A stretch of DNA of 64,000 nucleotides from an uncultured Gammaproteobacteria bacterium (lineage in GTDB: Bacteria > Pseudomonadota > Gammaproteobacteria > Eutrophobiales > Eutrophobiaceae). Every line of letters begins with the position of its first letter. The first letter of the stretch is position 1. Shown one piece after another: positions 881 to 53,026 of this stretch. The notes beneath the pieces are model-generated. The model did not search any database. It saw nothing but the letters and a program-made list of their open reading frames with translations, and was not told where the DNA came from. Position numbers and translations under genes: made by a program. The stretch spans positions 900,069 to 964,068 of the forward strand of contig CALSRS010000001.1 of NCBI GenBank assembly GCA_943788815.1. Reading direction: 5' to 3'.

Positions 881-2707
881 TTATGGCCACCATTCCCACA
901 GTTTCAATTTAATCCACTGTTGCAGTGGATAGGTCCAGATCCAGATAAGCTTACGTTCGTCTACCTCGATCTTACCCACGCCTTCCATCCCTGGCCGCAA
1001 CTGTAAAATTGATTCACTTAAGGTCGCCTCGACACGAAAATAATTTCCGCCATCACGGGCCTCGGTTACCGGAGTAACCTGGGTAACAATAAAGTCAAAG
1101 GTATATTCAGGTAAAGAGTTAAGAATGAGACTGCCCTGCAACTGTTCTTCGATTTCAGACATTCTATGTTCATCTACCCAGAGAATGATGCGATATTTAT
1201 CAAGTGGCGCGACCTCAAACAACACCTCGCCCTGCTCTACCGCACTGCCCAATCGCTGACTCAACTCACCACTGACAACGAGACCATCGAACGGTGCAAG
1301 CAGACGGGTCCTTGATAGTTGACTTGAAATAAGTTCTAGTTGCGCATTGTTCTGCTCGAGCTGGGCCTGGATAACTTTTGCTTCGGACCGGTTCTGCTCG
1401 GCAACAGCACTCTCATACTGGCTTTGGAGTTTGGCTTGCTCACTCATAGAACCGAGTTTTTCCAAAGTCAGATCCCTGTCATCAAGGTTAGACATAATTT
1501 GCCCTTCGGTGACATGTTCTCCAGCCCTGACATTAGCAGATTCTAGATAACCATCAAATGGCGCAACAATGGCGCGGCGGATTGACGGCTCCAGGATACT
1601 GTCAGCGGCAACTCTATAAGTTCCGGTTGCAAAGTTAAAAAATACAACGAGGGTAAGCAGGCAGATGAGTGCTAGTTTTCGTCCGAGATAACCTTTACCT
1701 ATTATCCTTTGTAGTTGTTCCACAGTGGCAGTATATAAATGGAGATACCAGGATTTATCCTGCAAATATTTTGTGCGCAGGGCCTCGCCTGAGAGTGCGA
1801 CTATACTCTGAATCTGATCAACTTCATGTTCTAGAAAAGGTTTCTCGGAATCACGTTCCAGGGTAACCGCGGCAAAATATTCTTCACCTGAATGAAGTGG
1901 AATAGAAAGTAAACTGGCATTCCCATATGAGAGTGAAAATTGAGCATGCTCCCTGTCCACCAGTAATTTATTATCATGTTCACTATTGGGGTAATTGATG
2001 ATTCCACGCTGAACAACGGCTTCATCCATTACTCCAGCAAGACGACGAATCAAATTCATCTTTTTGCCAAATTGCGCACTATGAGAAAGAGCAGCTACTT
2101 CGATTTTCAAGCCTTTATTCATGCCAATACTTACTCGTTCACAATCGAACGCAGAGGTAAGTTTATTAACGAATGTCATGGAGGCACTATTAAATCCAGT
2201 TTCTGCAAGTACAGCGCCCAATAATTCCACTGCACCAGACAACCTATCAAGTTGAGTATTTTTCTCTTTGCCATCATGACGTCGCAAAAAGAGTTCTATC
2301 CAGGCACTACCCCACTGTATTTGTTCCATGATCCTGGGTAATGCTGATTGTGGTACGCGGACAGAAAGCGCGACAACACCTTTTAACTCGTTATCAAGCC
2401 GGATGGGAAAAGCTACACCATACATACCCGAACCAAGAGAATGAACAAGACCTGCGGCTTCTTCAATTGATTCCTCTAGCAGGGAAGTCAGACTAGTAGC
2501 GGGTTGGGTCTTTTCAGGCCACAGGGCCGCAGGTTGAAAACCTGATTCACCATTATCCAGAACCAATATAGCCTGACTGATGCTATCAAGCCGAATACAG
2601 ATTAATTCAAGCCAAAACTGGCAATATTCCTCATAGCTTGATGCAGCGGAAAAGTTGACCCAGACCTCACGCAAGCTGTTCTGGGTATCATCGGAATCAA
2701 TTTGCAT
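881..2707 (-). CDS. HlyD-family periplasmic adaptor (membrane fusion protein) with a ~320-aa N-terminal cytoplasmic extension predicted to contain tandem GAF-like sensor domains.
   Basis: 608-aa ORF. A single TM segment (LALICLLTLVVFFNFATGTY, aa ~325-345) is followed by a typical MFP periplasmic region. That region has a lipoyl-like hairpin (VAPFDGYLESANVRAGEHVTEGQIM…LLAPFDGLVVSGELSQRLGSAVEQGEVLFEVAP), a short coiled coil and a beta-barrel tail. The N-terminal 320 aa are hydrophilic with two alpha/beta repeats (e.g. …AILVLDNGESGF…GVVALSVR… and …ERVSIGMNKGLKIEVAAL…), consistent with GAF. The annotated ATG at 2705-2707 has no Shine-Dalgarno sequence (the upstream mRNA is CUUAUUCCUUCCUUGUU), so the true start may differ. 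Confidence 0.7.
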   Translation of the reverse strand: MQIDSDDTQNSLREVWVNFSAASSYEEYCQFWLELICIRLDSISQAILVLDNGESGFQPAALWPEKTQPATSLTSLLEESIEEAAGLVHSLGSGMYGVAFPIRLDNELKGVVALSVRVPQSALPRIMEQIQWGSAWIELFLRRHDGKEKNTQLDRLSGAVELLGAVLAETGFNSASMTFVNKLTSAFDCERVSIGMNKGLKIEVAALSHSAQFGKKMNLIRRLAGVMDEAVVQRGIINYPNSEHDNKLLVDREHAQFSLSYGNASLLSIPLHSGEEYFAAVTLERDSEKPFLEHEVDQIQSIVALSGEALRTKYLQDKSWYLHLYTATVEQLQRIIGKGYLGRKLALICLLTLVVFFNFATGTYRVAADSILEPSIRRAIVAPFDGYLESANVRAGEHVTEGQIMSNLDDRDLTLEKLGSMSEQAKLQSQYESAVAEQNRSEAKVIQAQLEQNNAQLELISSQLSRTRLLAPFDGLVVSGELSQRLGSAVEQGEVLFEVAPLDKYRIILWVDEHRMSEIEEQLQGSLILNSLPEYTFDFIVTQVTPVTEARDGGNYFRVEATLSESILQLRPGMEGVGKIEVDERKLIWIWTYPLQQWIKLKLWEWWP

Positions 2708-2816: not shown

Positions 2817-3134
2817 CTACTCTCCAGTTGTAATCCCGCTGATCTGACCATAGCGTTCTTCATATTGATCCAGGACATTACTTAGTAATATTGACAAGCG
2901 CTTGGCAGCATATGGACTGACGAGAATACGGTCTGAGAGTTCTATCGAAACTTCTTTTTGCTGTGCATTCCAGGCCTGATTGAGACCAAAAAATAATGCG
3001 ATTTCTTCCCGAGTGCTGGCAACGTTACATACATTTGCATAAGTGCTCTTCATTTGCGAATCATCCCAATTTATCTTAGGGGGAGTATTAGTAGCAGCCG
3101 GCTTACTCGCCGTTGTGGTTTTTTTAGTGACCAT
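2817..3134 (-). CDS. Small conserved hypothetical protein, DUF3467-like, translationally coupled to the giant gene.
   Basis: 105 aa. It has a good SD (AAGGA) 7-8 nt upstream of the ATG and starts only 14 nt after the giant gene's stop codon. The motifs …INWDDSQMKSTYANVCNVASTREEIALFFG… and the C-terminal …AAKRLSILLSNVLDQYEERYGQI match my recollection of the DUF3467 family. The family assignment is from memory, not from a search. Confidence 0.45.
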   Translation of the reverse strand: MVTKKTTTASKPAATNTPPKINWDDSQMKSTYANVCNVASTREEIALFFGLNQAWNAQQKEVSIELSDRILVSPYAAKRLSILLSNVLDQYEERYGQISGITTGE

Positions 3135-3148
3135 TATTTTTCCTTATA

Positions 3149-6100
3149 TTAATTTAACCTGATTCTTTTAAGTGCATTTTCCCACTCACTATGAGACACG
3201 AGCACATCATCTTCATCTCCTAAAAAACACTGACTGTTTTCATCCCAGTACCTGACTTTTCGCTGTTTATGATGCAACTTATCGATGCCTTTTTGATCTA
3301 TTCGTATATTACCTTTACGCTCGCCATTTGTCAGTTTCCAACCAGTTAATCCTGCAAGAAGAGCGGACTCTATCACTATACTATCAGAGTACTCCGCCAT
3401 ATTATCATCGGCAATAACTAAACCTTGTTGATCTTGAGCAGGTAGCATAAAGGTTGTACCTTCTGTATTAAGATCGTTCCTGTTCGCGCCAGCCGACTCA
3501 TCTTCTTGAGCATCAGTTTCTTCTTCTGGCACACCTGGCTCTGAGTCTTCAATTTCAGATGGATCCTGAATATTGGTAGTTTCTGTTGCTGTCTCGAGTT
3601 CCTGATTTTCTGTTTCATCTGGACCCTCTTGCTGAATATCAGGCCCGCCTTCTACTTCATTAAGTTGCTGATTTTCAGTTTCATCGCTATTTAACCTTGT
3701 CTCATCTACATTTATATACTCATAAGAATGCGTGTCGATAAAGCTCTGATATTCAATAATTCCTTCTCTGGAATAAATTGTCCCTGTGTCTTCATCAATT
3801 TCTTCCGGAACATCAGGCAAGTTCAGCGGGGCAAGAAGATTACCTACGGCTTCATTCTCTTCTTCCTTATTTTCATATAGTCCAGATGTGGTTGCAGCCA
3901 ATAAATCCAGAGAGCCTTGTGCAAGGTAAGTAATAGCAATTACTTCACCATCATCTTCGTTCTGAGTAAGATACGCATATTCACCAGACAATATGTCATC
4001 CGATAATACTGCATTAAATAAATCATTACCAAAGCCGCCAAACATACTGTCATTACCATCTCCACCATCGAGAACATCATCATCACCTATAAACAACTCC
4101 GTTGTTTCTGAAATAACCAGCTGGCCATTAATAAAGGTTGCCCTACCGCCGTCACCAGAAATAAAATCACTGCCTTCATCACCATATAGCTCGTCAGCTG
4201 CTGCGCCACCAATAATTACATCATCATCTTCACCACCATGGACCTCATCCTCGCCACCATTATCTGAGAAAAGACTCTCAACCATATCTAGTGTGTTGGG
4301 ATCGGAATCTGTTAAATTAAAGACAGCGATGCCAAGATCGCCAATCACTATATCCTTACCTGCGCCGGTAAATACTAATTCATTCCCCAACCCACCGATG
4401 ACAAGGTCATTACCGGCACCGCTATCGATGGTGTCATCACCAGATGTTGTCAGGTTTGTGTCCGTCGTAAAATACTCATCCGCCAGACCATTGATATAAT
4501 CGGCAATACCATTATCACCAAAGATAATGTTATCACCGTCTGCGATGGTTACCTGATCATCACCAACACCTGCAAATACCAGGTTATTTCCACCACTTAC
4601 AGAGATGATATCATCTCCGCCCAGGGCACTTAATTCGCTTTCAACCTGGACGCGTTCACCACTACTGCCATATCTGACTGTGCCATTATCACCCAAATAA
4701 ATACTGTTACCAGCGCCAGATTCTATGGTGTCGGCACCACCCCCACCGATCACAACTTTATCGCCATCGCCCATAGTTACATTATCATTACCACCTATAT
4801 TACTTTCGGTATTAAAAATAGTGCTCTTGATCCCCGCTGTCCACTGAATCTCGCCGTTATCCCCCATTACATAATCCGTACTGTCTCCGGTATCAATGTC
4901 ATCACCGCCCACACCACCAATCACCACATTTACATCCGTGGCACTGGCACCGCCCAGCGTCAGAGTGTCTGCACCACCAGCAGTGCTGGTGCTCTTCGCC
5001 ACTTCCAATATGTTATTGGCGTCATATCCAATCTCACCCTCATCACCCACCACATAACGTGTGCCCACACTGCTCAGCGTCGTCGTCACCGTGTCCTCAC
5101 CCAGTCCAGCTATTACCACCTTGTCACCACTGCCAAGGGTAATACTGTCATTGCCACCGGCCTCACCCAGATAACTCTGCATGTTAATCAACTGCTCAGA
5201 ACCCGCAGGTCCTGTATACGTCATCACACCGTTATCGCCCACAACATGGTCGGTACTCGTCGCCGCCACTACCGTAATCGTGTCGTCATCACTGCCACCA
5301 ATTACCTGGTTCACATCCCCCGACAAGGTGATCGTGTCCTGGCCACCATCAGCATTGGCCGTGCTCTTCACCGTGCGCAACGCGCCAGTCGCATAAACGA
5401 TCTCGCCGTTGTCTCCAATCACACGGTGTATGCCAGACGTCCCGGTGTCCACCGTGTCATCCGCCATACCGGCTATCACCGTCTTCGAGCCATTACCCAG
5501 GTCAATATCATCATTGCCGCCAAACGCACTGTTGAGGCTCACCATGCTATCGATAATGCCACCCGTCCACTGAATCTCGCCGTTATCCCCCATTACATAA
5601 TCCGTACTGTCTCCGGTATCAATGTCATCACCGCCCACACCACCAATCACCACATTTACATCCGTGGCACTGGCACCGCCCAGCGTCAGAGTGTCTGCAC
5701 CACCAGCAGTGCTGGTGCTCTTCGCCACTTCCAATATGTTATTGGCGTCATATCCAATCTCACCCTCATCACCCACCACATAACGTGTGCCCACACTGCT
5801 CAGCGTCGTCGTCACCGTGTCCTCACCCAGTCCAGCTATTACCACCTTGTCACCACTGCCAAGGGTAATACTGTCATTGCCACCGGCCTCACCCAGATAA
5901 CTCTGCAGGTTAATCAACTGCTCAGAACCCGCAGGTCCTGTATACGTCATCACACCGTTATCGCCCACAACATGGTCGGTACTCGTCGCCGCCACTACCG
6001 TAATCGTGTCGTCATCACTGCCACCAATTACCTGGTTCACATCCCCCGACAAGGTGATCGTGTCCTGGCCACCATCAGCATTGGCCGTGCTCTTCACCGT

Positions 6101-9100
6101 GCGCAACGCGCCAGTCGCATAAACGATCTCGCCGTTGTCTCCAATCACACGGTGTATGCCAGACGTCCCGGTGTCCACCGTGTCATCCGCCATACCGGCT
6201 ATCACCGTCTTCGAGCCATTACCCAGGTCAATATCATCATTGCCGCCAAACGCACTGTTGAGGCTCACCATGCTATCGATAATGCCACCCGTCCACTGAA
6301 TCTCGCCGTTATCCCCCATTACATAATCCGTACTGTCTCCGGTATCAATGTCATCACCGCCCACACCACCAATCACCACATTTACATCCGTGGCACTGGC
6401 ACCGCCCAGCGTCAGAGTGTCTGCACCACCAGCAGTGCTGGTGCTCTTCGCCACTTCCAATATGTTATTGGCGTCATATCCAATCTCACCCTCATCACCC
6501 ACCACATAACGTGTGCCCACACTGCTCAGCGTCGTCGTCACCGTGTCCTCACCCAGTCCAGCTATTACCACCTTGTCACCACTGCCAAGGGTAATACTGT
6601 CATTGCCACCGGCCTCACCCAGATAACTCTGCAGGTTAATCAACTGCTCAGAACCCGCAGGTCCTGTATACGTCATCACACCGTTATCGCCCACAACATG
6701 GTCGGTACTCGTCGCCGCCACTACCGTAATCGTGTCGTCATCACTGCCACCAATTACCTGGTTCACATCCCCCGACAAGGTGATCGTGTCCTGGCCACCA
6801 TCAGCATTGGCCGTGCTCTTCACCGTGCGCAACGCGCCAGTCGCATAAACGATCTCGCCGTTGTCTCCAATCACACGGTGTATGCCAGACGTCCCGGTGT
6901 CCACCGTGTCATCCGCCATACCGGCTATCACCGTCTTCGAGCCATTACCCAGGTCAATATCATCATTGCCGCCAAACGCACTGTTGAGGCTCACCATGCT
7001 ATCGATAATGCCACCCGTCCACTGAATCTCGCCGTTATCCCCCATTACATAATCCGTACTGTCTCCGGTATCAATGTCATCACCGCCCACACCACCAATC
7101 ACCACATTTACATCCGTGGCACTGGCACCGCCCAGCGTCAGAGTGTCTGCACCACCAGCAGTGCTGGTGCTCTTCGCCACTTCCAATATGTTATTGGCGT
7201 CATATCCAATCTCACCCTCATCACCCACCACATAACGTGTGCCCACACTGCTCAGCGTCGTCGTCACCGTGTCCTCACCCAGTCCAGCTATTACCACCTT
7301 GTCACCACTGCCAAGGGTAATACTGTCATTGCCACCGGCCTCACCCAGATAACTCTGCAGGTTGCTGAGTTTTTCTGCACCTGCAACACCTGAATAGGTC
7401 ACGATCCCCTGATCACCCAATATATGGTCGGTACCATTTGCACTGATGATCGTATCTATCCCGCCACCACCGAGAACGACATTATCCCCTTGACCAGCAA
7501 TGATCTGGTCATCACCCGGTAACACAGAGACCGTGGTCCTGGTCTGATACAGGACGTCTGTCAGTGTGACCTCACGGGCATCGAACACGGCTGGATTACT
7601 TTCTATGATGTGAGTGCCTGTCGTGGTGATCAGATCAACCGCACCATGGTCACCGAAAATAATATCGTTACTGAAATCAATTAACGGATCGGCATTAAGA
7701 ATTTCACCATAGAGATAGTCGTTACCATCGCCACCAAAAATAATGTCATCACCTGCATCGCCGTAGATGATATCGACACCGTCGCCGCCCTTGATAATAT
7801 CCTCATCATTCCCGCCCCGGATCCGTACCGCTAAATCTGCGGTGGAGGCATCGATAACATCGGCGCCAGCATTACCCCAGATCTGTATGCGGCGTTCTTC
7901 AATGGGTAGTAATAATAAATTATGTGCAGGCGCCAAAAGATTATCTGTGGCAGTGATAATGATATCGTCATTACCTTCATTGGCATATAACTCTGTAATG
8001 GTAATGCCGGTCATCTCAATACTGCTCACGGTAATGGTATCGTCACCCTTACCGGCCCATACCACCAGGCCATTGTTAAAATCCCCACCCGCGGCATCAT
8101 AATTAATCGTGCCAACGGCCAGACCGCTGATACTGCCGTCTGACATCTGTGCATTTTTAGCTACGGTGTTATCAAAATCACTGATAAAGAGGGCGTTATT
8201 ACCGACGCCAGCATCAATGTTCAACTCACCCTGTACACCATCGAGATTCCCGTCGGCAAGTAACTGGTTAACAAAATAACCATCGGCAGTGGAGCTAACA
8301 TGGAATTGCTCGTCACCCACACCGGTATTAATGTTGGTGACGGTATTAAGGCTAGTGGCCTGGACATTAATAGTGTCAGTTCCGCTCCCCGTGTTGATAG
8401 TAAGGGTGTCAATTCCATAATAGTTAATGCCATCAGTCCGGGTTGCCAGTTCAGTATCACCAACAATGTCATTGATATCTGTGGCCAGGATACTGTAACC
8501 GGCATATTCACCCTGGAAGGTAAAGATAAAATCATTATCGGCTTTGACTACCGAGAAGTTATCCGTCTCAGGGTAGAATTGACGGCGTTCCTGGGTATTA
8601 TTCGGATTAAACAGGTAGTTGAGTTCGTCAAACCAGGTATCTGCATCAGCGGGATTTGCCTTAAGTTGCGGGATATCGCCGGCGCTGAAAGTCACGGACC
8701 CAACCGGAATGCCGGTGTGGTCAAGGTCACCTGGTGCGTAAACTGTTAAAACTATATTTCCACTTCCTACACTGATGGTTTGTACGGTATTTAATTCTGG
8801 TGTAGTAGTACCTTCTGTCAGGTAATTCACCCTGGCCCGTGGTGCGAATGGTGTTGTATCCGATATGGTCAGGTCGCGATGCTGGGCTTCCAGGTCAGTA
8901 AAATCTACCGTGCCGGTAGTGTAATCAACAACATATGTCCTGATTCCGCTATTAATACTCAAATTAACATTAATATTTACATCGTCTTCAATCAGTAATA
9001 ATTGTGCGACCGCTACCTTCATGTCGGCATCAGAAGCGGTAGATTCCAACACAACCTGATCGGATATTGCCCCGTCATCCCCCCTGGCCAATAACACGTA

Positions 9101-18100: not shown

Positions 18101-21100
18101 ATCACCTTCACCAGCATCAACCGTCAGCAGCACGTTGGAATCATCAAAGATGAAAGTATCATTGCCGCCATAGGTAGACAGCGATAGTCCAGCAAATCCC
18201 GAATAATCTATTCTTTGGGCAACATCATAGCGATACAACAATGCATTACGGAACAGAAAATGGTCATCAACATCCTCGATGTCTTCAGTACTGATGACCA
18301 GAGCGTTACCGGCCGAATTGGCATCCGTTGCGATGACATCATCAAGATTGATATCCCCAGTGGCGGTACCATATATTTTCAGTTGGTAGTAATCAGCATT
18401 TGCACCGCCTGAAATATACATCCCCTCGACATTACCCACCTGGGTGACGCTGATTTCATCCTGACCGGCGCCGGTCAACAAGCTAAGGGCAGCCGCCGAT
18501 GTGACGGACGTAATATTACCGGTCTGTTCCAGCGAGAGAGTAATTTGGTCAACATCACTAATACTATCAACGTCAAAACTACTTCTCGTCGCCAGAGACA
18601 TGCCTTCGATTGTCCCTGCAATAATCACATCAGCAACGGCAATACCATCGGCAAGTTCGATATCCACGGCCCGGGAAGTGCCATTGGCAGATGTAATGAT
18701 TGCAGACTGATTTATGATCAGGTCCAGAATGTCATTAAACTGACCAGTGGTTACGACATGCATTCCATCAATTGAGCCGTCCAGATTGACGTTTGCATTG
18801 AGTGACGTATCACCCAGATCAAATACTATTGATGGGCTGCTACTATCTGCTGAAGTCACTACAGCAGTACTAATCAGATCAAGATCCAGATTGCCGTTGA
18901 CGGCATCTATATTAAATCCGTTTACAATTCCCTGTAGGTTAATATCGACACTCCCACCACCAGCTCCGGTATCAATGGAAACGGTGCCCGCGTTACCCGT
19001 GTTGTCAAAATCTATCGTATCAATTCCTGTCCCGGTAACTAGCGAGATCCCATCAACATCTCCTGCTGAGAGAAAGTTGGTAACGGTAGCTCCGTTGGCA
19101 AGATTAATATCTATGGCGCGGGAGGTGCCGTTTGCAGAGGTAATGATGGCGCCCGCCTGTATGGTCAAGTCGACAAGATCGGTAAAGACCCCTGCACTAT
19201 CCAGGAAAAATCCGTCTATGGTACCGGCAAGGTTAATGTTCGCATTAACCGAGGCACTACCCAGGTCAAAGATAATTGACGGGCTGGTACTGTCCGGTGA
19301 AGTAACCATTGCATTCACCAGCATATCGAGATCCGTAACCCCGTTATCGGCATCCAACCTGAAGCCGTTCACCGCTCCCTGCAGATTAACGTCAACCCGC
19401 GCCGCACCATCGTTGGTTTCAATGGTGACAGTACCGATAGTACCGTTACTCAGCAAATCCAGTTGATCAGCACCGCTACCCGTATCAATGGAAACATTAC
19501 CCGCATTGTCATTTATGGTGACGTCAATGATATCCGCGGCTGCGCCTGTCTCAATTACAAGGTTACCCATGCCACCGGAAACTGAGATATCAATCTCATC
19601 AACGCCATTACCAGTATCAATAGTAATGTCACCCGTGCTATCAATTGTAATGTTACCATCGCTATCAATGACAGGATTCGTAATACCAATATTCACAAAA
19701 TCTTTATCATTTTCTCCATAAAATGCTAACGAACCCTTCATTGAGATAACATTGACAGTATCCTCACCATCACTGGCAAATAACGAGACTTTACCCGCAT
19801 ATGTGCTATCAATATGAAATATATCGTCACCTCCGCCTGTGTAGATAGTGATCTCATCAAGATATTTTGCCGAATCAATACTTATTTCTTCGACGAGTAT
19901 CGTTGATGCATCATCATTAATATTCAAATTGAGATTCTCTACACCAGCAAACCATATGCCAAGATCATTCAGACCAACCACCGAATCATAGACCACGGTG
20001 TATTCAGTACCCGGTTCACGGCCTATGACAACCGATGAATCAACAACAATATCGACATCTTCAATTTTGGTAATAATGATATCGGTCGGCAAGTAGAAGC
20101 CGTCCGTATCCTGTACAGTTTTAATATCGACGCTGTGGCGCTGGTTTGCACCATCATAGATAAACAGGCCGTCACTAATGGGTACCGTGATGTCGGGAGC
20201 GGTGCGTAATGTTTGTCCAAAGGCCTCTTCAATCAACTGTGTAACCTGCAAGTCGGTAAAGAAACTGGTATCAACAGGGTTGCCAACAATACCATCGGCC
20301 GGGTCGGTAATGAGAGGATCAGCCAATGCAGCGTAATAATCATGCCGTGCAGACGTCAACTTGTTTTCAACAACCAGTGCATCCAGGTAAGCGTTCCAGT
20401 TATTCACGGTAAGGTAAACCCGGTCTGACAGTAAAGCACTTGCAGGATCAAGGGCTACCTGACCATCAACGGTCACTGGCGGCGTGATAGTATCATCACT
20501 ATCATTCAGGCGTCTTACCGCGACTGCTTCAAGGGCCTGCTTACCATCACTGTCAACACCATAGTATGAGTAGGTGTAATAGGATCGTTCATAATTGTCG
20601 ATCTCGGCAACATAGGCCCTCTCCATTTTTATTGGATCGTAACCATAAGTGAAACCATCGATACGACCTGTAATGAGATTCGATGATGACTTGTTTGCCT
20701 TGTTTCCATCCTTGTATATGACGTAGTTGATCTCGCGCAGGGTACGGCTCTCACCCAAGGTATCATTGGGCGGCAGTGCCAGATCGCCAGCCATGATCTT
20801 CGCGCCCTCCTCGTAGGGATCAAATCCGGTCGTGTTTGGTCGATTGAAGAACTCTTCTACTGGCGAATCGATTGTTTCAACTTCGCCAGGGAGAGCGGTA
20901 CGATACTCGGATTCCAGCCATATTTTCTGGTTATATTGCCAGGTGGATTCCCGCGCTGCCAGCACTGGTGAGTCCTGCTTGTACACTCGCAGCGCCGTAT
21001 CGCCGGTCCAGGAAAAACCTTCGGTAGTCCGAAGATCCTGGCTGACAGAGGTTAACTCAACAAAATGCTTGAGCTCGTTCAGGCGCGTCTCAATGGTAAC

Positions 21101-36100: not shown

Positions 36101-39100
36101 AAGACCAAAGGCGGTCGCTTCGTACACTTCCAATATCAGATCACCCGATGGACGTACCTCGCGGCCAAAATATGAGGTTCCCAAATACTCCCATTCATAC
36201 ATGCGCAACTTGCTTCCATCTTCGAGAATTACAACCTTCGATATCTGATCTCCATCAACACCGTTAACAGGGTTATAGATACCTGTAACAAACGTGGTTC
36301 CACTCGATGACCAGCGTTCGGTATAAATCTCAAGCTGGCCATTTTCGAGCTGGCCCTCGCTGTTTAATGTCCCTCCGACGATCCGACCCAGTACGTCGCG
36401 ATCCACACCCACCATCTCATCCACCAGAGTCTCCAGAGCTTCGAGGATGAGGTCGAGGGAAATCCCATTGAAGCTGAATAAATCTTCAAGACCTGAAATC
36501 TCGATAATATTCGGCAAATTCAGCAAAAAGCCTGCCAGTCCAGCATCTTCAGGTAAAGCACTTGAAGTCGCCGATATCAGTGCCGAACCATCACTCAACT
36601 CGCCAAAGGCACCGGTTGGAACAATAGGCAATAAGAGCTCTAACTCCGTATTGCCACCAAGAGATGGAAAACCGAGTAGACCACCATTGCTATCACCCGT
36701 GATAGCATCCAGTGTCAACCTCCCTGGAATACCAAGTTCAATTTCGGTATCAAAATAAGCCAGACCATCTTCAACTGCGATACCGATAGGGCCTAGACTT
36801 GCTTCAAGTGAGAAGGCCTTACGGATTTGACCGCTGACGGTATCAGAATCAATGAACTCTTCGACTAGAATTTCAGTATCCCCATCAACCAGGGTGACAT
36901 CCAATACAGTGTAAACACCTGGATTATCAAGCGAACCTGTGACATAAAAAGTATCACCAACCTGAAGGTTTACTGCAAAGCGATCGGTGCCGGTATGATT
37001 ACCGGTAACAGTAAAACTATTATTTTCGCTATCCACAGCAATAATTTCGAGGGGCGCATCACCAAAACTCAACCCTGCAGCGAAAGTGGGGTCACTTACA
37101 AAGAAAGTGCCATTATCAGACAGACCAAAACTAAAATTCAGACCCAGATCTGCACTAAATATAAACGGGTTTGATTGTTCAATCTCCAGACCAATGTCGA
37201 TCGCAGGAAAGTTAAAATCGCCCGGGAAGTCGAGCGTCAGGCCATCAAGAGAAAGGTCAATCTCCTGCCTGAAAGAGGCAAGATCGATTTCAGCGCGAAA
37301 CTCGGTAAGATTTGAGGAATCCGTCGCAGCAAGGGATATGGAACGTCCTGCCGACAATAATCTGGAATTGACCACTTGGCGGAGCTCGTCGGTATCAGGT
37401 TCAAGCACATCAATATCATTGAAGTAATTCATCACCTCATCTGCGAGGGCACCCAGATCGTCTAATATCAACTGTGTTATGGAATCCAATGCCCCATCCA
37501 GTCCAAGCAGCGACGAGATACTTTTATCGGTAAAAGGCAGATCACCGGCACTATTAATATAATCAGCGATATCGTCTCCGATATTCTCCGCCCAGTCGGA
37601 AAACTGGTCCAGGCCATGACCCAGGGCGTTTTTATCAACACCGAGTATATCAGCGGCATCCGTGGTCGTTGGCAACGCCCTGACGTCGGCGGAAACCTCG
37701 GCATTCATGATTGAGCCAACAGTGCTGATGTCGACGAGACCGAGTACATGGCCAATCTCATGGGCTGCAACGGTAAGCAGGTCAATGGTGCCATCGCCGG
37801 GGGCCGGCCCGGTGGCGGCATTGGTATGCCAACCATAGCCAGCGGCATCATCGTCTATAAAAATAACAAATTCACCACTACCATTAAGTCCGGCATGCCC
37901 GAGGATCAGGTCATCAAGAAAGTCAGGGTGAGTTTCAAAGTCAATTACTTCATAACTGATGGTATCAAGCTGGTTCAGAACCGGAGAATCTGCTGATAAC
38001 GGGCCGATGGCCCAGCTGGCAATCGCCGCATCCTTAACTTCCTGGGCGATGTCGTCACCAAGGGTCAGGGTGCTGCCCTGTAATGAAGGTCCCGGCCCAT
38101 CGGCAGCCACCTGAGGCAGGAAGAATTTTTTCTTTAATTTTTTTGCAAGCTTTTCACCGAATGAGTCCGTGCTTACCACTTCAAAATTGCCATATGCCAC
38201 TACCGAATCTGTGACTACGCCACCAACCTCAAAATAATAAATAGTTGGTGAATTGTCTCCGATGATACTGATCAGATCGCCGACCGGGTTCTCGCTAAAT
38301 AGATTGGCAATCCCGTCGACTGCCTGTCGTATTAGGGTATCCTTCGGTAATGCTGAGAAATCAAGGATATCGAGACCACCACCACTGATGACAATGTCGT
38401 GGCCCCAGCCGGATTCAAACGAGAAAACATTGCTACCATGATTACCGATAAGTAAATCATTACCTTCGCCACCACGGGCGTTTTCAATGCTGGTAAAAAT
38501 ACTGGCATCGTTCGGTGCGGGACTGAACTTAATCAATCCCGGGGCATCGGCAATCATTTTTGTACCTGCTATGATGCCGGTTGTGGTTGTGGTGAGGGCT
38601 GGTGTGACACCGTCCGTCACCAGATACCATGTTTTGCCAGCAGCGCCAATGAGGACATTGACATTGCCACTGCCAACCGCACCCAGGTCTTCAAGTTCAC
38701 TCATAAGGGTTGATGCGTTGGCATCGAATGAAATCTGTGAGGTTTTATCGGCCCCATCACTTATTGAGAAGATACCAGCATCGGCATCGATGCTGAGGAC
38801 TTCATAGACTTGTGCCAGACTGCCACCGGCATTGACGGCAATGCTGACTCCTGGCGGCACGGTGCCAATTTTACCGATAACAAGCATAATGTCCTCGGCG
38901 CTACCGATATAAGCATCCCCATCAATGCCGTTAACTGCGGCGGCAAGCCCGGAGGCTACATCCTGGGGAGTGTCTCCACTGGTAACTGTGTACATGTAAG
39001 CATTAGTGTCCACGGTCACGACCCATTCGTCACCAACGACAACAGACACCGCTGTAAGGTCGATGGTTACCGTAACGACATTGGTCCCCAGAGTCATATC

Positions 39101-49618: not shown

Positions 49619-50959
49619 TTACCTCTCCAACATCTGGTTGATCTGTTGCAGATCATCTGGAGTCAGAATACCAACCAGCGCCTTGAGCCTGAGCCCATTC
49701 AACAAATAATCATATTTTGCTCCTGCCAGGTCTCGTTTAACGGCATATAGATCACGTTCCGCATCGAGCACACTAATGGCTGTCTGTAACCGTGCTTCAT
49801 AGGCTGCACGCCTTAGATCCAGTGTTGCCTGCTGTGCGGAAAGTGCCTGTTTCAATGCATCTATTCTCTTTACCGCTGTCTCAACACTCCAGTAAGCATC
49901 TCGGGACTGACGCCGTGACTCGCGCATGATTCGAGTCAGTTCTTGCAAGGCACTACTATGGCGGGCAATCGCTTCGCGTTTTTTTGAACTAACCGCACCG
50001 CCAGAGTACAAGGGCATTGAAAATCTCAGCAAAATCTCCTGGGTCCCAACTTCGCTACCGCCGCCAAACAGCGTTCCTTTGGTATCCTGATTGTTATAAC
50101 GTGCAACTGCATCCAGTGTCGGATAATGCCCGGCTTTCTGGCGGGTAATTTCCGTACTCGCAACCTCAACCGCATGCTGCTGGGCCACCAGTGCCGGGTT
50201 TTGTTTCATGGCAGCATCCACCCAATGCTGCTCATCTGCGGGTTCAGGACTCCGCAGGGTGATCTCTTCCTGCAAGGCATTTAAAGAGTCTGCGTCTCTC
50301 CCCACGATTTCATAAAGTGCCTCTTGAGCGTCTCTCAACAAAACCTGCGCAGCAGCATAATCCGCTTCGACAGATGCCATTCTTGCCAGGGCATCATAGG
50401 TATCAACTGAGCGACCCACCGCAGCCTGTTCCCTGCCCCTTGCCAATTCCAGTTGTTTTCCTACTGCGATGCGTTCTGCATCCAGAAAACTGATTTCATC
50501 CTCAGCTGCGAGGGCAGAAAGATAGGCCTCGGATACCCGTAGTATTAAGTCCTGCTGTGCCTGTATCAGTTTCGCATCTGCCAATTTCAATTCTTCTTTT
50601 GCCTGACCAATACGCTTATAATTGGCATACCTGAAAATTGGCTGACTGACCGACAGTGTCCACGTGGTGGTAGGAAAGCTGGTCTTACCCTGTTCAAACA
50701 CAGCATTATCACTGCGCTTGATTTTCTGGGTGGTTTCGATCCTATCCACCTCGAAAGTAGCCGTTGGTCGATAGCCAGCCCAGGCCTGGGGTATGACTTC
50801 CTGGGTTGCGGTATGATCAAAGATTGCTGTGTTTAATTTGGGATCAGCCTGAAGTGCCTCCTGGTATAACCCAAGAAGATCATCAGCATTAGCTGAAGAT
50901 AATAAAAGAATAAATAAAAGAACAATCCTGTAAGCAGGAGCAATTAAAAACCGTTCCAT
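49619..50959 (-). CDS. tolC: TolC-family outer-membrane channel protein (type I secretion outer-membrane component).
   Basis: 446 aa with an N-terminal signal peptide (LLFILLLSSANA) and the motif DDLLGLYQEALQADPKLNTA typical of TolC N-termini. Two internal repeat halves have a coiled-coil/beta pattern. The gene lies 258 bp upstream of the giant gene on the same strand. Confidence 0.85.
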   Translation of the reverse strand: MERFLIAPAYRIVLLFILLLSSANADDLLGLYQEALQADPKLNTAIFDHTATQEVIPQAWAGYRPTATFEVDRIETTQKIKRSDNAVFEQGKTSFPTTTWTLSVSQPIFRYANYKRIGQAKEELKLADAKLIQAQQDLILRVSEAYLSALAAEDEISFLDAERIAVGKQLELARGREQAAVGRSVDTYDALARMASVEADYAAAQVLLRDAQEALYEIVGRDADSLNALQEEITLRSPEPADEQHWVDAAMKQNPALVAQQHAVEVASTEITRQKAGHYPTLDAVARYNNQDTKGTLFGGGSEVGTQEILLRFSMPLYSGGAVSSKKREAIARHSSALQELTRIMRESRRQSRDAYWSVETAVKRIDALKQALSAQQATLDLRRAAYEARLQTAISVLDAERDLYAVKRDLAGAKYDYLLNGLRLKALVGILTPDDLQQINQMLER

Positions 50960-51264: not shown

Positions 51265-51624
51265 ATGAGCAATAATAGCGAGAAATTAGTTAAAGATATA
51301 CGTCGTCGTACCCGTAAGAAGTATTCCTCTGAAGAAAAGATCCGAATTGTACTGGAAGGGATGCGTGGAGAAGAAAGCATTGCCGAGCTGTGTCGCCGTG
51401 AAGGATTGAATCAAAACGTGTATTACCGCTGGAGTAAGGAGTTCCTGGAAGCGGGTAAACAGCGTCTGGCGGGCGATATAAAACGGGAAGCAAACTCCAC
51501 TGAAGTGACCGACCTGAAGAAAGAAAATGACCAGCTCAAACGCCTGGTGGCTGACATCATGCTGAAGAACGAGGTACTTAAAAAAAGTGTGCTTGGCTTG
51601 GAGTCGACCTGGGAAGACGAATGA
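51265..51624 (+). CDS. IS3-family transposase OrfA (HTH, leucine-zipper-like C-terminus).
   Basis: 119 aa. The protein …EEKIRIVLEGMRGEESIAELCRREGLNQNVYYRWSKEFLEAGKQRL… is characteristic of IS3/IS911 OrfA. Confidence 0.85.
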   Translation: MSNNSEKLVKDIRRRTRKKYSSEEKIRIVLEGMRGEESIAELCRREGLNQNVYYRWSKEFLEAGKQRLAGDIKREANSTEVTDLKKENDQLKRLVADIMLKNEVLKKSVLGLESTWEDE

Positions 51625-52607
51625 GTCTTTCAGCAGCTGAAAAGCTGGAAGTGATCCGCTTGGTAGAGGCGTCGGAATTACCCGTGAAACGCACTCTGGC
51701 CGAGTTAGGTGTGAGCCGCAGCAGTTTCTATCGTTGGTATCGGCAATACCTGGATGATGGTCCAGAGGGCCTGGAGCCAGATAATCGGTCCCCGAGACAG
51801 TTCTGGAATAAGATACCTGAGATGGTGAAGGAGCAGTGTCTGGAGCTCGCGTTACAGTACCCTGACAAATCGCCTCGGGAACTTGCCTGGACCATCACCG
51901 ATGAGCACAACTACTTCATCTCGGAATCCAGCGTTTATCGACTGTTAAAGCAGTACGATCTCATTACCAGTCCTGCTTATATCCTGATGCAAGCGGGTGA
52001 TTCGTTTCAGAATCCAACACGACGAGTCAACGAGCTTTGGCAGACTGACTTCACCTACTTTCGTATTGTTGGTTGGGGGTGGTATTACCTGTCCACTGTT
52101 CTAGATGATTACTCCCGCTACATCATTGCCTGGAAGTTAACAACCAGCATGGCAGCTGATGACGTGAAGCAGACGCTGGATGCGGCGATTGAGACCACGG
52201 GAGTCAACGAGATAACGGTCAAACACCGACCTCGCTTACTGAGTGATAACGGGCCTTGTTATATCTCCTCGGAATTGAAGGATTATCTGAGTAAATATCA
52301 GATGCAACACACCCGTGGCGCACCGTACCATCCCATGACACAAGGCAAGATAGAGCGATATCACCGCTCCATGAAGAACGTCGTGAAGCTGGAGCACTAT
52401 TATTATCCGTGGGAACTCGAACATGCTATCCGGCAATTTGTACAATACTACAATCATGAACGTTACCATGAGTCACTTGATAATATTACGCCGGCAGATA
52501 TGTATTTTGGCCGCTATCATGAAATTATGGATAGAAGAACCATTATCAAATACGAAACATTACAACAGAGGAGAAAGGAAAATTTAAGAATATATATAAA
52601 TCAGTGA
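51621..52607 (+). CDS. IS3-family transposase OrfB (integrase/rve DDE catalytic domain).
   Basis: 328 aa. The protein …WQTDFTYFRIVGWGWYYLSTVLDDYSRYIIAW…LLSDNGPCYISSELKDYL…HTRGAPYHPMTQGKIERYHRSMK… shows the D, D(35)E motifs of the rve domain. It is in the -1 frame relative to orfA (gacgaATGAgtc). Confidence 0.85.
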   Translation: MSLSAAEKLEVIRLVEASELPVKRTLAELGVSRSSFYRWYRQYLDDGPEGLEPDNRSPRQFWNKIPEMVKEQCLELALQYPDKSPRELAWTITDEHNYFISESSVYRLLKQYDLITSPAYILMQAGDSFQNPTRRVNELWQTDFTYFRIVGWGWYYLSTVLDDYSRYIIAWKLTTSMAADDVKQTLDAAIETTGVNEITVKHRPRLLSDNGPCYISSELKDYLSKYQMQHTRGAPYHPMTQGKIERYHRSMKNVVKLEHYYYPWELEHAIRQFVQYYNHERYHESLDNITPADMYFGRYHEIMDRRTIIKYETLQQRRKENLRIYINQ

Positions 52608-52938: not shown

Positions 52939-53026
52939 CGGAGAGAGAGGGATTCGAACCCTCGATGGGCTTTTGACCCATACTCCCTTAGCAGGGGAGC
53001 GCCTTCAGCCACTCGGCCATCTCTCC
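52936..53026 (-). tRNA. tRNA-Ser (anticodon GCU), 91 nt including the encoded CCA.
   Basis: Reverse complement: GGAGAGATGGCCGAGTGGCTGAAGGCGCTCCCCTGCTAAGGGAGTATGGGTCAAAAGCCCATCGAGGGTTCGAATCCCTCTCTCTCCGCCA. It has a 7-bp acceptor stem, a D-arm, an anticodon stem CTCCC/GGGAG with loop CUGCUAA, a long variable arm, a T-arm GGTTCGAATCC and a terminal GCCA. Its position downstream of csrA matches the serV context in enterobacteria and pseudomonads. Confidence 0.9.

Follow-up and report, generated by a model that had tools for sequence, protein, structure and literature searches.

A near-identical tandem repeat array of variable copy number in a giant gene of an uncultured marine bacterium, probably maintained by concerted evolution

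In a 64,000-nucleotide (nt) stretch of DNA from an uncultured bacterium of the Gammaproteobacteria (GenBank assembly GCA_943788815.1, contig CALSRS010000001.1, positions 900,069 to 964,068; this whole stretch is hereafter the window), a giant gene carries, in the part encoding its C-terminal region, a tandem array of a 726-nt unit whose copies are almost identical at the DNA level and whose number differs between assemblies. The array is probably a higher-order solenoid repeat that is homogenised, and varied in copy number, by misaligned recombination or gene conversion. It is a further case of a well-known class, the in-frame, copy-number-variable tandem repeats of giant exported proteins, and it provides a natural example of concerted evolution and copy-number polymorphism in a giant gene of an uncultured marine bacterium, drawn from environmental long-read assemblies. 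The features on which this rests are as follows.

3149 to 49360, minus strand: host gene, 15,403 amino acids (aa), with LEPR-XLL, DUF4347, scattered RTX nonapeptide blocks and a conserved C-terminal domain
4839 to 7363, minus strand: near-identical tandem array of a 726-nt (242-aa) unit, 3.48 copies in 2525 nt, encoding aa 14000-14841
6638-7363, 5912-6637 and 5186-5911, minus strand: full copies of the 726-nt unit, located by offset-726 self-identity, repeat search and translation
4839-5185, minus strand: terminal partial copy of 347 nt, preceded on the gene strand by the three full units
5182, minus strand: the only mismatch within the array, in the terminal partial copy, with T at 5182 against G at 5908 and 6634

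When the sequence was compared with itself at an offset of 726 nt, s[i] equalled s[i+726] at every position from 4839 to 6637 except 5182 (1798 of 1799 positions), an agreement that cannot be due to chance, and a repeat search returned four in-register copies at spacings of 726, 726 and 726 nt. The self-comparison confirms the roughly 3.5 near-identical in-frame copies with one single-nucleotide polymorphism (SNP) described in the original prediction, together with their end at 7363, although the start given there as 4838 is actually 4839. The mismatch is nonsynonymous on the gene strand, giving ATG (Met14727) against CTG (Leu) in the other copies. With a unit length divisible by three (726 = 3 x 242) and near-identical copies, the array is in frame within the minus-strand open reading frame (ORF) at 3149-49360 (15,403 aa), which is accordingly a gene with a long in-frame tandem repeat. 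A repeat search of the whole 46-kb gene (3149-49360) found no second long near-identical direct repeat, and Tandem Repeats Finder, whose maximum period is 500, did not return the array. An antisense ORF across the array (5246-7393, plus strand, 715 aa) exists because the repeated unit is stop-free in that frame; considered as a gene, it gave only Pfam noise below threshold and is almost certainly not one.

Copy number was followed in public assemblies, in which exact matches to the neighbouring DUF3467 and membrane-fusion proteins led to six long contigs (25-346 kb) belonging to six ENA samples. All six contain the array between flanks that are 99.9-100% identical, four with 3.48 copies (L001/L144, L004/L148, L005/L149 and L145) and two with 2.48 (L002/L146 and L003/L147), so that the variable copy number originally predicted is seen at the assembly level. 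L001/L144 is 100% identical to the window along 13.1 kb, and the array SNP at 5182 is absent from L003. A further polymorphic site lies outside the array.

4712, minus strand: synonymous GCT/GCC polymorphism in the codon of Ala14883, 127 nt beyond the array on its downstream side

C at this site is found in both 2.48-copy contigs, in one 3.48-copy contig (L145) and in the short-read contigs L006/L150, L008 and L151. A perfect linkage of this flank SNP with 2.48 copies is weakened by L145, which joins the C allele to 3.48 copies, and three SNP/copy-number haplotypes are distinguished among the contigs. This haplotype structure argues for real copy-number alleles, and the data support an array that is recombinationally active.

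Arrays of the same build were found in relatives. P0016/L061, sampled in water of South San Francisco Bay (the sample is named in PMC11334935), is a relative represented by its C-terminal fragment, and its unit is 79% identical to the window unit in aa and 77.5% in nt. The L061 contig starts inside its array, nt 1-179 being 100% identical to nt 727-905 and so giving the same 726-nt period, and its terminal partial copy ends within ~30 nt of the end point of the window array. P0011, a 6446-aa homolog with an LExRxLL N-terminus, contains three full 242-aa copies in the same phase as the window array and a fourth cut by the sequence end; its full copies are 93-98% identical to one another in aa and 63-64% identical to the window unit. 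A metagenome scan by generic RTX-like patterns gave two useful relatives, L064 and L065, the latter 58% identical in its best-matching segment and starting ten codons into its terminal partial copy, and a scan of genome contigs found no close relative among the GTDB species representatives searched, the best being metagenome-assembled genomes (MAGs) 29-40% identical. Identity within a lineage is 100% in the window, 100% in L061 (visible overlap) and 93-98% in P0011, against 77.5% nt and 63-79% aa between lineages, and copies group by lineage, not by position. Because the relatives keep the same unit, with copies alike within a lineage and diverged between lineages, the array can be read from these comparisons as an old one that is kept uniform by concerted evolution, through unequal recombination or gene conversion. 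The very recent expansion originally proposed tells only part of the history: the same 726-nt array has been kept in lineages 77% nt or 64% aa identical. A literature search on RTX adhesins and concerted evolution returned unrelated papers only.

The 242-aa unit is itself a higher-order repeat, made of four RTX-like modules of ~60 aa with a pattern of roughly GGxDxIxLGxGxxxVIAGxGxDTVxT...VIGDNGEIxY. A hidden Markov model (HMM) built from the four modules of the unit recognised ~19 consecutive modules across aa 13948-15077, 14 of them within the identical array, one upstream and four downstream. Searched against Pfam and NCBIfam at E<=0.01, the unit matched no family, PF00353 (HemolysinCabind) included, and it matched no sequence in the PDB. 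An AlphaFold2 model of two consecutive units, based on a 14-sequence alignment, is all-beta and of high confidence (predicted local distance difference test, pLDDT, 91.8; predicted template modelling score, pTM, 0.91), and its only structural matches in the PDB are calcium beta-rolls and beta-helices, the best being the RTX domain of Bordetella CyaA (7usl_C, E=6e-5; also 7rah and 6sus), with a further match to the Ca2+-dependent beta-helix of MpAFP from Marinomonas (3p4g, probability 1.0, template modelling (TM) score 0.50 relative to the target). The model supports a continuous calcium-type beta-roll or solenoid formed by the array modules, as a fold class only. Like CyaA RTX (7usl, 7rah, 6sus) and MpAFP region IV (3p4g), its best structural matches, the unit is Gly/Asp-rich and is predicted to form an all-beta solenoid; it differs from them in its low TM-scores (0.16-0.50), in matching neither PF00353 nor any PDB sequence, and in carrying its GGxDxIxLG-like motif within a ~60-aa super-module and not as a plain nonapeptide or 19-residue repeat. 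Because these scores are low and PF00353 is unmatched, calcium binding by the unit is suggested only by its fold class and by the resemblance of its motif.

A word-indexed protein search with the unit gave three short matches only, and an exhaustive HMMER search with the repeat family was used instead. This returned 783 cluster representatives at E<=1e-3 and 133 at E<=1e-30, many of them multi-thousand residues long and with up to 25 matched stretches. Windowed self-comparison of the top 150 representatives found internal repeats at least 95% identical over at least 150 aa in 16 and internal repeats 80-95% identical in a further 15, with periods mostly near 2, 3, 4, 5, 6 or 8 modules in the 30 highest-identity cases. 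The ~60-aa RTX-like module family is widespread and calcium-solenoid-like, and neither Pfam nor NCBIfam has a model that its unit here matches. Multi-module blocks that are 80-100% identical occur in about 20% of the top 150 members of the module family. A family-wide tendency to homogenise would make such genes systematically truncated in short-read MAGs.

Identity drops abruptly at both ends of the array, at sub-repeat ends. In ungapped DNA comparison the 120 nt of flank nearest the array match the unit at 50-58%, and farther out the identity is no better than random. The 3' boundary is the end of module 2 (...GDNGEIQWT), and therefore the fourth copy is a partial one of 347 nt. Diverged blocks related to the unit adjoin the array.

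7364 to 8134, minus strand: paralogous block upstream of the array, in register but deeply diverged, sharing 29-35% aa identity with the unit (aa 13743-13999)
4130 to 4810, minus strand: four diverged ~60-aa sub-repeats directly downstream of the array, aa 14851-15077, found with the sub-repeat HMM and blastp

In blastp, aa 13743-13998 aligned in register to the unit at 29% aa identity, and ungapped DNA identity was 53-58% along the first 120 nt of flank. A diverged older copy had been noted at 7364-8200; an in-register related block does exist there, but it is not a slightly diverged copy, and at 29% aa identity it is a deep paralog that belongs to the ancient array of sub-repeats.

Under the interpretation preferred here, the identical 726-nt copies would allow misaligned homologous recombination or gene conversion between copies, and each exchange would add or remove whole in-frame units and overwrite new mutations. 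The route we infer would be RecA-mediated unequal exchange between sister chromosomes, or replication-associated misalignment. Copies within a lineage would in this way stay identical while lineages drift apart, which constitutes concerted evolution, and the same process would yield the 2.48- and 3.48-copy natural alleles, while the partial terminal copy would mark where a conversion tract ended, at a conserved boundary between modules. A change by one unit would be structurally seamless because each unit starts and ends at equivalent solenoid positions. The rise of a beta-roll is usually ~0.48 nm per turn, and one unit would by estimate change the length of the rod by ~12-13 turns (about three per module), or roughly 6 nm. 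The phenotypic effect of such a gain or loss, including any effect on fitness, is probably small or neutral, because one unit represents 242 of 15,403 aa (1.6% of the protein) and sits in the C-terminal beta-roll-like block.

Several points weigh against this interpretation. The non-integer copy number, with its 347-nt terminal copy, needs an extra event, for example the end of a gene-conversion tract or a homeologous exchange. Copy numbers were taken from metagenome assemblies and not from counted spanning reads, and the choices of an assembler in mixed populations could account for some of the difference. With no more than two alleles seen, and with C at the flank site in both 2.48-copy contigs, one deletion event would be enough to explain them. 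Finally, the TM-scores of the model to solved beta-rolls are low (0.16-0.50), and the PF00353 profile does not match the unit.

The array has also been proposed to be a classic contingency mechanism for varying adhesin length, and in an adaptive form of this proposal selection would keep a hypervariable copy number for adhesin reach or antigen variation, which we consider unlikely. Copy number is polymorphic in natural populations, high-identity repeat blocks recur across the repeat family, and repeat proteins of variable size, among them streptococcal alpha C protein and staphylococcal SasG/Aap, are precedents. However, classic contingency loci have a short unit (~1-9 nt) and are switched on and off by frameshift or promoter spacing, whereas the unit here measures 726 nt and every change of unit number is in frame, leaving no on/off switching. 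In L003 (2.48 copies) one gene call runs through the array region, and in L002 gene calls are split ~4 kb upstream of the array, where 1-nt insertions lie. Moreover, one unit amounts to only 242 of 15,403 aa (1.6%), the array belongs to the C-terminal beta-roll-like block and not to an extender, two alleles only were seen, and no Ig-like (immunoglobulin-like) extender or known ligand-binding domain was detected in the protein. To call the array a contingency locus for adhesin length overstates the evidence.

Somewhat less likely still is an assembly artefact, in which repeat collapse or expansion would have created the array or the 2.48/3.48 difference and the true copy number would be fixed and possibly higher. 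Every sequence considered here is a metagenome assembly, and the assembly risk raised in the original prediction does exist: four short-read contigs, L006-L009, break off at the array or close to it, starting 30-144 nt inside its last copy or 134-404 nt downstream of it, hence at or within 0.4 kb, and contigs of two related lineages likewise begin within their own arrays. The array shows why short-read MAGs truncate such genes at this point. The long contigs contain homopolymer indel errors, their few flank differences being 1-nt insertions, mostly in homopolymer runs; this is the pattern of long-read assembly error, and such reads should span the 2.5-kb array. Against an artefact, the array recurs in six independently assembled contigs from different samples with the same boundaries and, L003 apart, the same SNP; its 2.5 kb are short relative to typical long reads; and the two 2.48-copy contigs differ at the array SNP yet share the flank SNP, a haplotype-like pattern and not one of random collapse. 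Least probable is a lone neutral burst of duplication, very recent and restricted to this strain, without an older array. It would fit the one mismatch in 1799 compared positions and a gene without any other near-identical repeat, but L061/P0016 shows the same 726-nt period, identical copies and a similar partial end (~30 nt) at 77.5% nt identity, P0011 carries 3.4 copies or more in the phase of the window array, and bursts arising independently are not expected to arrive at one and the same unit phase together with a matching partial terminal copy.

The giant protein that carries the array begins with a LEPR-XLL motif (NCBIfam NF012209, aa 21-43, 32.3 bits against a cutoff of 17) and DUF4347 (aa 212-360), and PF00353 blocks are scattered in it, including matches in the last 1404 aa. 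Most of the protein has no Pfam match, and a Pfam scan of the 15,403 aa, a sequence-level test, found no Ig-like family. Outside the C-terminal block there is almost no internal repetition, the best pair being 56% identical (aa 9956-10316, offset 149; 18413-19495), and so little internal repetition is unusual for a protein of this size. The two N-terminal matches place it with the LEPR-XLL family (NF012209) with DUF4347, a family whose sole defining feature is its N-terminal motif; LExRxLL also opens several further giant proteins that carry the C-terminal repeat family of the window protein, and literature searches found no paper on the function or repeat dynamics of the LEPR-XLL family.

Compared with the features that define RTX adhesins (bioRxiv 10.1101/2025.09.30.679566), the giant protein is, judged by its sequence, not a canonical RTX adhesin, since two of them fail: there are no tandem Ig-like extenders (no Ig-like Pfam family and little repetition), and the type I export set is incomplete at the gene cluster. 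A C-terminal RTX beta-roll is present (PF00353 in the last 1404 aa and the AlphaFold2 solenoid). Where an N-terminal retention module would stand, Pfam and NCBIfam show LEPR-XLL and DUF4347; some key adhesin domains are noted to escape profile scans often (bioRxiv 10.1101/2025.09.30.679566). Like the RTX adhesins, among them MpAFP/MpIBP, the window protein is predicted to be a giant, calcium-dependent, exported Gram-negative protein, and the array shares with theirs in-frame DNA-identical repeats, a repeat number that varies between homologs and breaks in short-read assemblies. Region II of Marinomonas primoryensis MpAFP/MpIBP consists of ~120 identical 104-aa repeats (PMC4083281, PMC5550230). 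The repeat unit of RTX adhesins is an Ig-like extender of ~250-650 bp, often in more than 20 copies that form most of the protein, whereas the window array is a 726-bp block of four RTX-like modules in 2.5-3.5 copies, confined to the C-terminal region of a protein whose remainder is essentially non-repetitive and whose gene cluster is without an ATP-binding cassette (ABC) transporter. Long identical in-frame DNA repeats of strain-variable copy number, homogenised by recombination, are also known from streptococcal alpha C/Rib and staphylococcal SasG/Aap; unlike the window protein, these are Gram-positive wall-anchored proteins of other folds, and a change in repeat number alters a large fraction of the protein.

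Two further parts of the giant protein stand out. The last ~70 aa (3152-3361) are basic, tryptophan-containing and strongly conserved, follow an acidic low-complexity linker and have no Pfam match; the residues W500, K501, R507, W531, Q536 and W552 (in the numbering of the 562-aa alignment query) are invariant, and we take this segment to be unlike the usual secretion signals of type I systems. At aa 3843-3908 (37637-37834) there is a matrixin-like match (PF00413, 27.7 bits against a cutoff of 24), which contains the only HExxH motif of the protein, HEIGHVLGLxD, followed by SIM, and may represent a protease domain of metzincin type embedded in the chain.

Most unusual of all that the window contains is a conserved gene cassette beside the giant gene, which runs past the window start and was read there from L001 10001-17194 / L144 9574-16767. 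The genes of the cluster are the following.

49619 to 50959, minus strand: gene for an outer-membrane channel of the TolC family, adjoining the giant gene on its upstream side (TIGR01844, 270.9 bits, above cutoff)
2817 to 3134, minus strand: DUF3467 protein of 105 aa, which directly follows the giant gene and opens the conserved cassette
881 to 2707, minus strand: membrane-fusion protein (HlyD/resistance-nodulation-division (RND) adaptor-type) with a GAF domain, 608 aa, second cassette gene
beyond the window start: 715-aa M50-like membrane protein that carries an HEFGH motif and has a membrane-fusion segment fused to it, third cassette gene
beyond the window start: truncated SecA-like ATPase, 660 aa, fourth cassette gene
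beyond the window start: second membrane-fusion protein, fifth cassette gene

The SecA-like ATPase retains intact Walker A (MKTGEGKT) and DEVD motifs and scores below all SecA and SecA2 cutoffs, and the cluster encodes three membrane-fusion-type proteins in all, one of them fused to the M50-like protease. No ABC transporter was found in the window or within 10 kb beyond it, although one may lie unlinked elsewhere in the genome. The five-gene cassette, complete or cut by a contig end, lies beside RTX-like C-termini in 25 of the fetched loci, which come from gamma- and deltaproteobacterial MAGs and include deltaproteobacterial, Chromatiaceae, Desulfobacteraceae and Neptunomonas MAGs, and literature searches found no description of it. 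It may be an undescribed route for the export of giant proteins that uses a SecA-like ATPase instead of an ABC transporter. For the array itself this raises a further reading, speculative and improbable to about the same degree as adaptive contingency, namely that the array is the variable part of a C-terminal export or anchoring module of the giant LEPR-XLL protein, exported by an undescribed tripartite machine that is not of type I. Such a machine would consist of the truncated SecA-like ATPase, the fusion of M50/HExxH and membrane-fusion segments, two further membrane-fusion proteins (one with GAF), DUF3467 and TolC. If so, the number of calcium-folding solenoid units would bear on the ratcheting or spacing of a chain of 15,000 residues, and for that reason it would be tuned and held uniform. 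The DUF3467 profile had no PDB match, and AlphaFold2 on the single sequence gave a pLDDT of 48; a SecB-like role was considered and is unsupported, hhalign against an approximate E. coli SecB sequence giving a probability of 0.3%.

A second gene with a DUF4347 N-terminus (L144 20071-21827, ~9 kb past the left end of the window) starts ~3 kb beyond the cassette on its downstream side and is cut off by the end of the locus; the cassette may therefore stand between two genes of this kind. The chromosomal setting of the whole cluster is recA-recX-alaS-lysC. Between the TolC gene and lysC there is an IS3-like element (51265-52607, plus strand), composed of an HTH_Tnp_1 ORF and an rve integrase ORF, with a tRNA gene next to it (52939-53026, minus strand).

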